Below the pieces are notes generated by a model. The model worked only from the letters and a program-made list of their open reading frames with translations. It had not been told where the DNA came from and searched no databases. The translations under genes were made by a program, and so were the position numbers. From a virus (taxonomy: Duplodnaviria > Heunggongvirae > Uroviricota > Caudoviricetes), in IMG/VR virus record IMGVR_UViG_2563366850_000002: a stretch of 3,198 bases of DNA; one strand, written 5' to 3'. Each line of letters starts with the position of its first letter. The first letter of the stretch is position 1. Shown one piece after another: positions 1 through 3,198 of the stretch.

Positions 1-351
1 ACCGTCGCCCCCGCCCGTCTGCGTGAGGCCATCAAGTCAGGCATGGCGGAGACGAATGCGGAGCTGTACGAGTACCGCGAACAGAAAATTGCCGCCGGTT
101 TTACGCGTCTGGCGGACGTCCCGGCGGACGACATCGACGGTGAAAGCATCAAGGTTTTTTACTACGAGCGCGCCGTGTGTGCGATGGCGACCGCGTCGCT
201 TTATGAGCGTTACCGCGGCGTGGATGCCAGTGCGAAAGGCGACAAGAAGGCCGACAGCATTGACAGCACCATTGATGAACTGTGGCGGGATATGCGCTGG
301 GCGGTGGCGCGTATCCAGGACAAGCCGCGCTGCATCGTGAGTCAAATCTGA
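1..351 (+). CDS. L: Head completion/stabilisation protein gpL (P2-like), C-terminal ~116 codons plus stop; 5' end lies outside the window start and the N-terminal part is at 3015..3198
   Basis: Frame 1 is open from position 1 and reads TVAPARLREAIKSGMAETNAELYEYREQKIAAGFTRLADVPADDIDGESIKVFYYERAVCAMATASLYERYRGVDASAKGDKKADSIDSTIDELWRDMRWAVARIQDKPRCIVSQI, ending at TGA 349..351. This matches my recollection of the P2 gpL C-terminus. The stop overlaps the next start by 1 nt (TGATG), as expected for adjacent phage late genes. Confidence 0.85.
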   Translation, partial: TVAPARLREAIKSGMAETNAELYEYREQKIAAGFTRLADVPADDIDGESIKVFYYERAVCAMATASLYERYRGVDASAKGDKKADSIDSTIDELWRDMRWAVARIQDKPRCIVSQI

Positions 352-554
352 TGAAGACCTTTGCGCTACAGGGCGACACGCTCGACGCCATTTGTGTCCG
401 GTATTACGGGCGCACTGAGGGCGTGGTCGAGACTGTGCTCGCCGCAAATCCGGGACTGGCTGAACTGGGTGCGGTGCTGCCGCACGGCACCGCCGTCGAA
501 CTGCCCGACGTTCAGACCGCGCCCGTGGCTGAAACTGTCAATCTGTGGGAGTAA
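351..554 (+). CDS. X: Tail protein X (P2 gpX-like, small LysM-like protein), 67 aa, apparently intact
   Basis: ATG at 351..353 and TAA at 552..554. The translation MKTFALQGDTLDAICVRYYGRTEGVVETVLAANPGLAELGAVLPHGTAVELPDVQTAPVAETVNLWE matches recalled P2 gpX in length and sequence. Native L-X-Y order is preserved. Confidence 0.85.
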   Translation: MKTFALQGDTLDAICVRYYGRTEGVVETVLAANPGLAELGAVLPHGTAVELPDVQTAPVAETVNLWE

Positions 555-557
555 CGC

Positions 558-842
558 ATGACAGCAGAAGAAAAAAGCGTCCTGTCGCTTTTCGTGATTG
601 GGGTGCTGATTGTTGTCGGCAAGGTGCTTGCCGGTGGTGAACCCATCACCCCGCGTCTGTTTATCGGGCGCATGTTGCTCGGTGGTTTTGTCTCGATGGT
701 TGCCGGTGTTGTTCTGGTGCAGTTTCCTGACCTGTCACTGCCTGCGGTGTGCGGCATCGGCTCCATGCTGGGTATCGCCGGTTATCAGGTGATTGAGATT
801 GCCATTCAGCGCCGCTTTAAGGGCAGGGGGAAGCGGAATTAA
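558..842 (+). CDS. Y: Holin (P2 gpY-like), 94 codons; the last 2-3 codons may derive from the junction with the V fragment
   Basis: ATG at 558 is preceded by GGGAG about 7 nt upstream. The translation MTAEEKSVLSLFVIGVLIVVGKVLAGGEPITPRLFIGRMLLGGFVSMVAGVVLVQFPDLSLPAVCGIGSMLGIAGYQVIEIAIQRRFKGRGKRN has hydrophobic transmembrane segments and a basic C-terminus, and matches recalled P2 holin gpY. TAA at 840..842. Confidence 0.85.
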   Translation: MTAEEKSVLSLFVIGVLIVVGKVLAGGEPITPRLFIGRMLLGGFVSMVAGVVLVQFPDLSLPAVCGIGSMLGIAGYQVIEIAIQRRFKGRGKRN

Positions 843-1104
843 AACGGCCAGCGTGACGGCTTCTGATTCTGTTACTGCCACGGTGCCGGTGGTCATGGTG
901 AAAGCATCAACCCGCGTCACCCTGGACACACCGGAGGTGGTCTGCACCAACAGGCTGATTACCGGCACGCTGGAAGTGCAGAAGGGCGGGACGATGCGCG
1001 GCAACATTGAACACACCGGCGGTGAACTCTCATCAAACGGGAAGGTACTGCATACCCATAAACACCCCGGCGACAGCGGCGGCACAACCGGGGGACCTCT
1101 ATGA
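832..1104 (+). pseudogene. V: 3' fragment (~90 codons) of baseplate spike gene V (P2 gpV-like); the 5' ~120 codons are missing and there is no native start
   Basis: Frame 1 reads SGIKTASVTASDSVTATVPVVMVKASTRVTLDTPEVVCTNRLITGTLEVQKGGTMRGNIEHTGGELSSNGKVLHTHKHPGDSGGTTGGPL, ending at TGA 1102..1104. This matches the recalled C-terminal third of P2 gpV. The six-frame ORF 793..1104 starts at an ATG inside the holin gene in another frame and is not a native start. The ATGA stop/start overlap with W is preserved. Confidence 0.8.
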
Positions 1105-1448
1105 CAGCGCGTTATCTCGGAATGAATCGCAGTGATGGCCTGACTGTCACTGACCTTGAGCATATCAGCCAGAGTATCGGCGATATCCTGCGCACGCCGG
1201 TCGGCTCACGGGTGATGCGTCGTGATTACGGCTCGTTGCTGGCGTCAATGATTGACCAGCCGCAGACCCCGGCGCTTGAGTTGCAGATTAAGGTCGCCTG
1301 TTACATGGCGGTGCTGAAATGGGAACCCCGCGTCACCCTGTCATCTGTCACCACGGCGCGCAGTTTTGACGGGCGAATGACGGTCACGTTAACCGGCCAG
1401 CACAACGACACCGGCCAGCCACTTTCGTTAACCATCCCTGTGAGTTGA
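1101..1448 (+). CDS. W: Baseplate wedge protein gpW (gp25/GPW family), 115 aa, intact
   Basis: ATG at 1101 overlaps the V stop (ATGA). The translation MTARYLGMNRSDGLTVTDLEHISQSIGDILRTPVGSRVMRRDYGSLLASMIDQPQTPALELQIKVACYMAVLKWEPRVTLSSVTTARSFDGRMTVTLTGQHNDTGQPLSLTIPVS matches recalled P2 gpW with the expected length. TGA at 1446..1448. Confidence 0.9.
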   Translation: MTARYLGMNRSDGLTVTDLEHISQSIGDILRTPVGSRVMRRDYGSLLASMIDQPQTPALELQIKVACYMAVLKWEPRVTLSSVTTARSFDGRMTVTLTGQHNDTGQPLSLTIPVS

Positions 1449-1452
1449 AACT

Positions 1453-1626
1453 ATGCCGATTATCGACCTGAACCAGCTACCCGCACCGGATGTGGTCGAG
1501 GAGCTGGACTTTGAAACCATTCTTGCCGAACGCAAGGCGACACTGATTTCCCTTTATCTGGGAGCTTTACGCCGCAACCGGTGTGGATGCCGTACCGATT
1601 CGTTTTGCAGGCTCTTACCAGCGTGA
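1453..1626 (+). pseudogene. J: 5' fragment of baseplate gene J (P2 gpJ-like): about 35 native codons (1453..~1557), then out-of-frame read-through into FII-derived sequence, stopping at TGA 1624..1626 (57-codon ORF)
   Basis: ATG at 1453 lies 4 nt after the W stop. The N-terminus MPIIDLNQLPAPDVVEELDFETILAERKATLISLY matches recalled P2 gpJ, then the sequence diverges (LGALRRNRCGCRTDSFCRLLPA*). Native gpJ is about 300 aa. Confidence 0.8.
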
Positions 1627-1861
1627 CGATACCGGCGAAACGGTGGCCGTCGAGGTGGTCATGCGTGGACGTCAGAAAGAAATCGACACCGGCGAGGGTA
1701 AACAGGGAGAAGACACCGAGTCGAAAATCTCCGTGGTCTGCACTTATTTCCGGCTGACGATGGACGGTAAGGAGCTGGTCGAAATTGACACCATCAACAT
1801 GATTGAGAAGGTGAACGGCGTCGACCGGCTGGAGCAACACCGCCGCAATATCGGCCTGTGA
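1553..1861 (+). pseudogene. FII: 3' fragment (~100 codons) of tail tube gene FII (P2 gpFII-like), copy 1; no native start codon
   Basis: Frame 2 reads (F)IWELYAATGVDAVPIRFAGSYQRDDTGETVAVEVVMRGRQKEIDTGEGKQGEDTESKISVVCTYFRLTMDGKELVEIDTINMIEKVNGVDRLEQHRRNIGL, ending at TGA 1859..1861. This matches the recalled C-terminal ~60% of P2 gpFII. There is an in-frame stop at 1544..1546. The tracked ORF 1583..1861 begins at an internal GTG with no Shine-Dalgarno. Confidence 0.8.
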
Positions 1862-1868
1862 TTTTCAT

Positions 1869-1889
1869 CCGGTCAGCCTGGCTGACCGG
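1869..1889 (+). other. Perfect inverted repeat/stem-loop in the FII-E intergenic region (CCGGTCAGC ctg GCTGACCGG), copy 1
   Basis: A 9-bp perfect stem with a 3-nt loop, 8 nt after the FII stop. No run of T follows it, so it is not a canonical intrinsic terminator. It may be an RNA stability or attenuation element within the operon. Confidence 0.5.
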
Positions 1890-1917
1890 TTAACCCTGAT
1901 TCATAAGTGAGAAAACC

Positions 1918-2106
1918 ATGAACAAAGAAAATGTCATTACCCTGGACAATCCGGTCAAACGTGGTGAGCAGGTTATCGAACAGGTCACGCTGATGAAACC
2001 CAGTGCCGGGACGCTGCGCGGTGTCAGTCTGGCAGCGGTCGCGAACTCCGAAGTCGATGCACTGATTAACGTGCTGCCGCGCATGACGAACGCAAGGCGA
2101 CACTGA
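1918..2106 (+). pseudogene. E: Truncated copy of tail assembly chaperone gene E: 57 native codons fused at the duplication junction to 5 non-native codons (NARRH) and a stop
   Basis: ATG at 1918. MNKENVITLDNPVKRGEQVIEQVTLMKPSAGTLRGVSLAAVANSEVDALINVLPRMT is identical to the start of the full E copy at 2478 except N versus K at one residue. It diverges after 2088 into J-derived sequence read out of frame. The frameshift site and E' extension are absent from this copy. Confidence 0.8.
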
Positions 2107-2112
2107 TTTCCC

Positions 2113-2421
2113 TTTATCTGGGAGCTTTACGCCGCAACCGGTGTGGATGCCGTACCGATTCGTTTTGCAGGCTCTTACCAGCGTGACGATACCGGCGAAA
2201 CGGTGGCCGTCGAGGTGGTCATGCGTGGACGTCAGAAAGAAATCGACACCGGCGAGGGTAAACAGGGAGAAGACACCGAGTCGAAAATCTCCGTGGTCTG
2301 CACTTATTTCCGGCTGACGATGGACGGTAAGGAGCTGGTCGAAATCGACACCATCAACATGATTGAGAAGGTGAACGGCGTCGACCGGCTGGAGCAACAC
2401 CGCCGCAATATCGGCCTGTGA
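2113..2421 (+). pseudogene. FII: 3' fragment of tail tube gene FII, copy 2 (duplicate of 1553..1861)
   Basis: Identical to copy 1 at a 560-nt offset except one synonymous difference (1786 T versus 2346 C, ATT/ATC Ile). TGA at 2419..2421. Confidence 0.8.
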
Positions 2422-2428
2422 TTTTCAT

Positions 2429-2449
2429 CCGGTCAGCCTGGCTGACCGG
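2429..2449 (+). other. Same inverted repeat/stem-loop, copy 2 (inside the duplicated unit)
   Basis: Identical sequence at a 560-nt offset. Confidence 0.5.
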
Positions 2450-2477
2450 TTAACCCTGATTCATAAGTGAGAAAACC

Positions 2478-2753
2478 ATGAACAAAGAAAATGTCATTAC
2501 CCTGGACAATCCGGTCAAACGTGGTGAGCAGGTTATCGAACAGGTCACGCTGATGAAACCCAGTGCCGGGACGCTGCGCGGTGTCAGTCTGGCAGCGGTC
2601 GCGAACTCCGAAGTCGATGCACTGATTAAGGTGCTGCCGCGCATGACGGCACCGATGCTGACCGAGCAGGAAGTCGCCGCGCTGGAACTGCCTGACCTTG
2701 TGGCGCTGGCCGGTAAGGTGGTCGGTTTTTTGTCGCCGAACTCGGTGCAGTAA
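2478..2753 (+). CDS. E: Tail assembly chaperone gpE (P2-like), 91 aa, intact; analogue of lambda G
   Basis: ATG at 2478, TAA at 2751..2753. The translation MNKENVITLDNPVKRGEQVIEQVTLMKPSAGTLRGVSLAAVANSEVDALIKVLPRMTAPMLTEQEVAALELPDLVALAGKVVGFLSPNSVQ matches recalled P2 gpE. The native position after FII is preserved. Confidence 0.9.
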   Translation: MNKENVITLDNPVKRGEQVIEQVTLMKPSAGTLRGVSLAAVANSEVDALIKVLPRMTAPMLTEQEVAALELPDLVALAGKVVGFLSPNSVQ

Positions 2754-2905
2754 CGTTCCCGAAAAATCTGTCGGTCGATGACCTGATGGCGGATGTGGCA
2801 GTGATATTTCACTGGCCGCCATCAGAACTGTATCCCATGAGCCTGACCGAACTCATCACATGGCGCGAAAAGGCGCTCCGGCGAAGCGGAAACACGAATG
2901 AGTAA
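2478..2905 (+). CDS. E': gpE+E' (P2-like), made by programmed -1 ribosomal frameshift at 2726..2732; extension ends at TAA 2903..2905 (about 142 aa total)
   Basis: The slippery heptamer T_TTT_TTG sits in the E frame near the E 3' end. The -1 frame downstream is open and reads VAELGAVTFPKNLSVDDLMADVAVIFHWPPSELYPMSLTELITWREKALRRSGNTNE*, matching the recalled P2 E' C-terminus. Confidence 0.8.
2726..2732 (+). promoter_or_regulatory. Programmed -1 frameshift slippery sequence (TTTTTTG) for E to E+E' recoding
   Basis: The heptamer T TTT TTG is in the X_XXY_YYZ register relative to the E frame (codons TTT 2727..2729, TTG 2730..2732), with an extended open -1 frame downstream. Recoding at this kind of site in P2-like E/E' and lambda G/GT is established knowledge. 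Confidence 0.75.
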
Positions 2906-3014
2906 CAATGTAAAATTACCGAATGCGCCCCGCGCCAGGGCGGCACGCCGGTCAGTGAGGGTGAATCACCTGACACTGCACCGGCGTCCACCGCCCGACT
3001 TTTCAGAGGTGGTC

Positions 3015-3198
3015 ATGATGACGCTGATTATTCCGCGAAAGGAGGCTCCCGTGTCCGGTGAGGGTACGGTGGTCATCCCGCAACCGGCAGGCGACGAGCC
3101 GGTGATTAAAAACACGTTCTTTTTTCCCGATATCGACCCGAAGCGCGTCCGGGAACGTATGCGCCTTGAGCAGACCGTCGCCCCCGCCCGTCTGCGTG
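3015..3198 (+). CDS. L: Head completion/stabilisation protein gpL, N-terminal 61 codons; continues beyond the window end and is in frame with 1..351
   Basis: ATGATG at 3015 is preceded by GAGGTGG 4 nt upstream. The translation MMTLIIPRKEAPVSGEGTVVIPQPAGDEPVIKNTFFFPDIDPKRVRERMRLEQTVAPARLR matches the recalled P2 gpL N-terminus. The last 25 nt are identical to window positions 1..25 and the frames agree. Confidence 0.85.
   Translation, partial: MMTLIIPRKEAPVSGEGTVVIPQPAGDEPVIKNTFFFPDIDPKRVRERMRLEQTVAPARLR
3174..3198 (+). repeat. Terminal 25-nt identity with window positions 1..25 (ACCGTCGCCCCCGCCCGTCTGCGTG), consistent with circular or tandem-unit topology with a 3173-bp unit
   Basis: Direct comparison of the window ends. 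Joining them reconstitutes a 510-nt (169 aa plus stop) gpL ORF, the expected size for P2 gpL. Confidence 0.9.

Follow-up and report, generated by a model that had tools for sequence, protein, structure and literature searches.

The entire 3,198-nt window, i.e. the whole stretch of DNA that was analysed, consists of P2-type late-gene sequence, as judged from its list of open reading frames (ORFs) and a Pfam scan. P2 itself (NC_001895), phage R18C (NC_049461) and the intact prophages of E. coli PapM-36-2 and O145 RM9872 served as references. All bases of the window map to these P2-like genomes, with 97-100 % identity and in the same orientation. Local blastn showed that window 2918-3198 followed by 1-832 corresponds to R18C 5898-6985, window 828-1564 to R18C 10557-11293 (97.3 %), window 1554-2088 to R18C 18753-19287, window 2084-2124 to R18C 11253-11293 and window 2114-2919 to R18C 18753-19558. 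The same blocks were found with canonical P2 (blastn), and the two intact E. coli prophages agree where compared, the RM9872 stretch ending before FII, E and T. P2 gene order is held in every block, and colinearity with R18C, P2 and the two prophages is broken solely at the junctions. There are four distinct novel joins, designated J1, J2, J3 and J5, each with 2-3 nt of microhomology.

All genes retained from the phage lie on the plus strand. The window starts within head-completion gene L, of which it contains the 3' 351 nt (1-351; 98.4 % identical to R18C 6154-6504; Pfam Phage_GPL, E = 6e-38). Gene X, encoding the 67-aa tail protein X, is intact (351-554; Phage_tail_X, E = 4.4e-32, profile positions 1-60 of 60) and is followed by holin gene Y, by the remnant V' of spike gene V and by an intact gene W for a baseplate wedge protein of the gp25 type (1101-1448, 115 aa; GPW_gp25, E = 2.3e-14; R18C blastn). 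The remainder of the window is made up of fragments of the baseplate gene J, the tail-tube gene FII, the tail-chaperone gene E and the tape-measure gene T, together with one intact copy of E. L, X, Y, W and E were all found to be full length and free of frameshifts (ORF list, Pfam). A promoter scan detected no sigma-70-like promoter across the whole window, including none newly formed at J1, and terminator-like sites in the window did not exceed the shuffled expectation.

The junction between the holin and spike genes

The ORF at 558-842 (94 aa, stop codon TAA at 840-842) encodes a full-length P2-type holin. It covers positions 1-86 of the 86 positions of Pfam profile PF04550 (E = 2.3e-42; 143.7 bits, with a cut-off of 25) and is 98 % identical to P2 gpY in a protein alignment. 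Alignment with four native 93-aa holins showed that residues 1-92 are native and that the protein ends in GKRN, whereas the native holins end in GKQ or GKP. R93, N94 and the stop codon are read out of frame from V sequence, while K92 is native, with its third base contributed by V. A preliminary description of this DNA had suggested that the three residues KRN derive from the junction; this applies to the arginine and the asparagine, but not to the lysine. By analogy with the tail of the lambda S protein, the added arginine in the cytoplasmic tail might shift the timing of hole formation.

The sequence derived from V starts at 832 with S122 of gpV, in a frame different from that of the holin, much as had been proposed before. 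V' (832-1104; alignment with gpV of P2 and PapM-36-2; Pfam Phage_spike, E = 3.7e-30, and Apex) consists of gpV residues 122-211 plus the stop codon. It thus retains 90 of 211 codons (~43 %) rather than the 3' third of the gene estimated earlier, and comprises the spike beta-helix and apex only. The N-terminal domain is lost and there is no native start codon. On the minus strand, an antisense ORF of 142 aa (735-1163) crosses the scar. Public gene calls hold a 116-aa version of it, without a Pfam match. It was called because V' lacks a start codon, and it is almost certainly spurious.

Both flanks of J1 align to the references at E = 0, so that chance is no issue: window 1-832, spanning L, X and Y, equals R18C 6154-6985 (98.4 %, local blastn), and the block from 828 to 1564 spans the 3' part of V, W and the 5' part of J. 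The preliminary description had placed the breakpoint at about 831 to 842 and had asked for an alignment with a P2 reference. Such alignments revealed the same deletion with P2, R18C and the two prophages, and base-by-base comparison with these four references located the breakpoint at the low edge of that range. Agreement with Y is perfect up to and including 832, and agreement with V is perfect from 831 onward, which places the crossover inside the dinucleotide AA at 831-832. The native Y side reads ...AAGGGCAGGGGGAA and continues beyond the breakpoint as aCaGTAATG, the native V side reads ...acGGtAA and continues as GCGGAATTAAAACGG, and the window reads ...AAGGGCAGGGGGAAGCGGAATTAAAACGG across the junction. 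The exact microhomology is AA only, surrounded by an imperfect GG.AA (GGGAA versus GGTAA or GGCAA, one mismatch). The pentanucleotide AGCGG, previously put forward as possible microhomology, belongs to V only and just its first A is shared with native Y; on the Y side the four references read GGGGGAA followed by aCaG or aCcG, with AA alone in common.

Compared to R18C the deletion at J1 measures 3,576 bp, and compared to P2 it measures 3,681 bp. According to the R18C and P2 annotations it removes the last 7 nt of Y, the genes K, lysA, lysB, lysC, R and S, a non-essential gene of the orf30 type and V codons 1-121. It also removes the O-operon terminator (P2 9397-9433) and the pV activator site (P2 10239-10266), together with the pV promoter and the V transcription start. 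The direct joining of Y to V at codon 122 and the absence of K, lysA, lysB, R, S and roughly the first 120 V codons, as claimed in the preliminary description, are thus confirmed by the R18C, P2 and gpV alignments. The list of losses given there was incomplete, however, as lysC, the orf30-type gene, the O-operon terminator and the pV site and promoter have disappeared as well. No sequence of K, lysA, lysB or lysC is present anywhere in the window (ORF list, R18C blastn). Instead of a complete holin-endolysin-spanin cassette, V codons 122 onward directly follow the holin stop codon.

Further joins and the self-closing contig

The second deletion, J2, lies at 1554-1556. Here the first ~35 codons of J (J', 1453-1556), exact on the left side up to 1556 (R18C 11285), are joined at codon 35 to FII at about codon 72, out of frame and with TTA shared. 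Compared to R18C, J2 deletes 7,470 bp, comprising the 3' part of J, the genes I, H and G, a variable region, the pF promoter, FI and the 5' part of FII. The join creates a chimeric J'-FII' ORF of 57 aa (1453-1626), which is publicly annotated as a hypothetical protein. The retained 3' part of FII (1554-1861; Phage_tube profile positions 76-165 of 165; R18C blastn) precedes the first 57 codons of E (1918-2088; ORF list, R18C blastn), which are cut by J3. At J3 (2087-2088) E codon 57 is joined to J at about codon 26, with CG shared (R18C comparison). From this point on a second copy of the J fragment, J2 and FII' follows (2087-2421), as a direct repeat at 560-nt spacing.

The repeat is part of a 560-nt tandem duplication of window 1527-2086 in 2087-2646, with J3 as its seam. 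J2 is copied at 2114-2116, and since the duplication includes J2 it is the later event. The duplicated copies differ at 2 positions only, 1786 (T) versus 2346 (C) and 2070 (C) versus 2630 (G). The C at 2070 changes K to N in the truncated E and is absent from the three covering references and from a second assembly that carries the locus (see below). This second assembly contains one copy of the 560-nt unit, with the allele of copy 1 at 1786/2346 and that of copy 2 at 2070/2630, which indicates either that each copy mutated once or that the second assembly collapsed the repeat.

The intact copy of E encodes 91 aa (2478-2753; Phage_TAC_7). The slippery site TTTTTTG for E/E' (2727-2733) is intact in this second copy, while the first copy of E is cut upstream of the slippery site. 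A GC-rich hairpin before the slippery site (2705-2733) was flagged by the terminator scan. The FII-E spacer harbours a near-perfect 21-nt palindrome, CCGGTCAGCCTGGCTGACCGG, at 1869-1889 and 2429-2449. The palindrome is also found in R18C and the PapM-36-2 prophage and has no exact match in canonical P2.

Near the right end of the window the first 7 codons of T (T', 2898-2919; R18C 19537-19558) are followed by J5 (2918-2919), where T codon 7 is joined, with AC shared, to a position 3 nt after the M stop codon. In reference coordinates this is a backward jump of 13.66 kb. The window then runs through the M-L intergenic region into the 5' 184 nt of L (2918-3198, L from 3015), with 100 % identity to R18C 5898-6178. 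Positions 1-25 are identical to 3174-3198 (25 nt), which makes the contig self-closing, with a period of 3,173 nt. J5 is in frame with L and opens an ORF of 208 codons around the cycle (2898-3198, then 26-351), consisting of 7 T residues, a 32-residue translated spacer and full-length L.

If R18C sequence were joined at random, at least 2 nt of microhomology would be expected with p = 0.16 per junction and p = 6.5e-4 for all four. This argues for illegitimate recombination assisted by microhomology, or for template switching, and against blunt joining.

Genomic context and occurrence of the junctions

An exact look-up in NCBI records was performed with the junction-specific holin (ending in GKRN) and the 57-aa J'-FII' fusion product. 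Both were found on two records, KB733421.1 and KE137287.1. KB733421.1 is a 3.24-Mb scaffold of GCA_000351965.1, E. coli KTE156, in which the holin has locus tag A31A_01578. The window is identical to the stretch of this scaffold between two N-runs. KE137287.1 is a 965-kb scaffold of GCA_000408785.1, in which J1 and J2 are identical base for base and in which L, X, Y joined to V', W, J' joined to FII', and E run unbroken into intact T, U, D and ogr. J3 and J5 are absent from it. The two assemblies differ at one base over window 154-2088 and at 10 of the 4,416 nt in the T-ogr region, and GCA_000408785.1 probably represents a different isolate from KTE156, although KTE156 is the only strain name given for the two protein accessions. 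As J1 and J2 occur in both assemblies, both deletions would predate the split of the two isolates. The junctions thus lie within large E. coli chromosomal scaffolds, and J1 and J2 constitute an inherited defect in the assembled sequence of both.

The occurrence of the junctions elsewhere was studied by megablast with 161-nt junction windows as queries, a match requiring coverage of at least 80 % of the junction window. J1 was found in 0 of 5,426 complete E. coli genomes, 1,514 of which have P2-type matches to both halves, and in 0 of the 84 matching phage records. J2 and J5 were likewise found in none of the 5,426 complete genomes, and no plasmid record showed the arrangement when the whole window was used as megablast query. 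Exact patterns across J1, J2 and J5 gave no hits in viral contigs, JGI metagenome contigs or GTDB representative contigs. A native phage in which the region downstream of the holin is colinear with the window, which would have contradicted the preliminary description, was encountered in none of these 5,426 genomes, 84 phage records and plasmids.

In the KTE156 scaffold the window has N and M on its left and T, U, D and ogr on its right. The left contig breaks off within M (R18C 5516); beyond it come 6,695 N, then the window and then 4,290 N (N-runs at 1389-8083 and 11282-15571 of the fetched KB733421.1 stretch 1414792-1434980). The right contig starts at R18C 19410, is identical to window 2771-2919 (149 nt) and diverges exactly at J5 into T. 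Because of this fork the segment from E' to T' must be present at least twice, once before T and once before the M-L spacer. The 381 bp of M between the end of the left contig and J5 are missing from the assembly. The M-to-T distance in the scaffold is 14.2 kb, versus 13.9 kb in an intact phage, while the assembled sequence amounts to 3.2 kb only. The locus could, on account of this distance, hold more than a simple remnant, e.g. a co-resident intact P2-like prophage. The gap sizes were also compared with whole numbers of 3,173- or 2,613-nt units, without a clean fit.

The self-overlapping ends raise the question whether the window is a free circular DNA of 3,173 bp, either an excision or recombination by-product of the prophage or a mini-replicon, with J1 as one of its seams. 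The identity of 1-25 and 3174-3198 and the joining of T' back to the M-L spacer at J5 are in agreement with a circle. The contig is moreover cut at an arbitrary point inside L and not at the forks, which is how assemblers appear to treat isolated cycles. However, the window maps only to R18C 5898-6985, 10560-11285 and 18753-19558, segments without a replication gene, an origin, an initiator or a cos site; the R18C replication genes (26138-29996) and genome ends fall outside the mapped blocks. In the second assembly J1 and J2 run on into T-U-D-ogr and the chromosome, searches of viral contigs and plasmids gave no J5, and a collapsed tandem duplication yields the same assembly graph. A free circle is for these reasons considered unlikely. 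Local duplication or amplification of the already-deleted remnant would be the simplest reading of the cycle.

A more elaborate version of such an amplification is that the KTE156 remnant exists as a multicopy 3,173-bp unit, L-X-holin-V'-W-J'-FII'-E'-J'-FII'-E-T', present as a chromosomal array or circle and perhaps selected for its dose. A tandem array of about four units could then account for the ~14 kb separating M from T; alternatively, the unit could form a multicopy circle. All seams would result from 2-3 nt of microhomology, as in a template-switching (MMBIR-like) event, and a raised dose of the holin or another kept gene might benefit the host. We regard this possibility as very unlikely.

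It could also be argued that the join of Y to V' is an assembly or library chimera and that the real genome has an intact region from Y through K to V. The window is indeed a small and odd contig between two large N-gaps, closing on itself by a 25-nt overlap, M and T are as far apart in the scaffold as in an intact phage, and J3 and J5 are not reproduced in the second assembly. J1 and J2, however, recur base for base in the second assembly, within an unbroken 965-kb scaffold. The overlap of 2 nt at J1 makes a de Bruijn (k-mer) mis-join impossible, and random chimeric reads are singletons that form no contigs. Furthermore, the genes expected in the deleted intervals are absent from scaffold KB733421.1. 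A chimera is accordingly judged highly improbable, and J1 appears, with some residual doubt, to be a genuine and lineage-private deletion scar rather than a mis-join.

Prophage decay and its consequences

Compared to its intact relatives, the locus has lost K, R, S, the 5' part of V, the 3' part of J, I, H, G, FI and the 5' part of FII. The explanation favoured here, which as a whole is given a probability of roughly 85 %, is that J1 is a genuine deletion junction and that it belongs to a defective P2-like (Peduovirus) prophage residing in the E. coli KTE156 chromosome. An illegitimate, microhomology-assisted join would have linked the penultimate codon of holin gene Y to V codon 122 with the loss of ~3.6 kb, and a second deletion of 7.5 kb, J2, would likewise have been inherited by both lineages. 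The head-to-tail joins J3 and J5 would have arisen subsequently in KTE156 only. Together with the self-overlapping ends, these two joins may reflect a local tandem duplication or amplification that was collapsed by the short-read assembler into a 3,173-nt cycle. The retained genes are intact and 97-100 % identical to those of live phages, from which it follows that the deletions look recent. J1 represents ordinary prophage decay and is accompanied by other scars in a remnant that is heavily rearranged.

The locus resembles the late region of P2 and other Peduovirus members in the M-L spacer and in L, X, Y, V, W, J, FII, E, E' and T. It differs from that region by the four novel joins, i.e. the losses of 3.6 kb and 7.5 kb, the 560-nt duplication and the linkage of T' to the M-L spacer. 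Defective P2-like prophages are well known in E. coli, among them the ogrK / D' remnant of strain K-12 and the remnant of E. coli B. Another example is Sp13 of the O157 Sakai strain (PMC2669165). Such prophages are, like the present remnant, chromosomal P2-type elements that lost morphogenetic and lysis genes by internal deletion. The breakpoints in the Sp13, K-12 and E. coli B remnants differ from those described here, where the head genes N, M and L as well as T-U-D-ogr have been kept. Defective prophages with deleted lysis and morphogenesis genes are commonplace; the breakpoints reported here are new, but their kind was already known.

R-type tailocins also derive from a P2-like tail and lysis region. 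They have kept the sheath, tube, baseplate, fibres and full lysis cassette and have lost the head, whereas the remnant shows the reverse: FI, I, H and G are deleted and FII, J and V are truncated. Tailocin, plasmid and mini-phage readings were rejected on the basis of gene content.

P2 has the lysis cassette Y-K-lysA-lysB-lysC (roles according to NC_001895). In the remnant, as in P2, the holin Y is full length, but the remnant has lost K (endolysin), lysA (lysis timing) and the two spanin genes, and RN stands in place of the final holin residue. The notion of an intact holin without an endolysin, put forward in the preliminary description, is thus literally true (PF04550 full length, K absent). 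This framing matters little, because the remnant has also lost tail completion, baseplate, fibre and sheath functions and half of the tube gene.

Some consequences for transcription can be anticipated. With the O-operon terminator and pV gone, V', W and J' have come to follow Y within the late O operon and would be transcribed as read-through passengers. The O-operon promoter is presumably located upstream in the scaffold, beside N and M. P2 late promoters need Ogr or the delta protein of P4 (also annotated in NC_001895), which suggests that the orphan holin would be made only if the retained ogr is expressed or if a P2- or P4-type phage infects the cell. Late transcription driven by Ogr or delta would then yield a holin without endolysin or spanins, and the prophage is most likely incapable of cell lysis or of building a tail.

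That the holin-only arrangement is a selected module, either a domesticated holin or a trap fired by Ogr or delta supplied by an incoming phage, might be read from the intact frames of holin, L, X, W and E and the ogr gene kept downstream, but it is extremely improbable, as the junction occurs in only two assemblies among all collections searched, the 97-100 % identity to live phages means that recency alone explains the intact frames, and the adjoining V', J' and FII' are plainly debris. Nothing in the data points to selection for this arrangement.

The locus has little importance beyond annotation. Junction products are publicly listed as hypothetical proteins, namely the 57-aa J'-FII' fusion, a truncated E of 62 aa and the 116-aa antisense ORF, and these three are best read as debris. 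Of wider interest is a technical point: a short, self-overlapping contig that holds phage genes only can be taken for a small circular virus or satellite. In this case it most likely stems from a draft bacterial genome in which a local duplication was collapsed. For the P2-like family, the locus shows inactivation of a prophage by a few large, microhomology-mediated deletions, with the surviving genes left intact.
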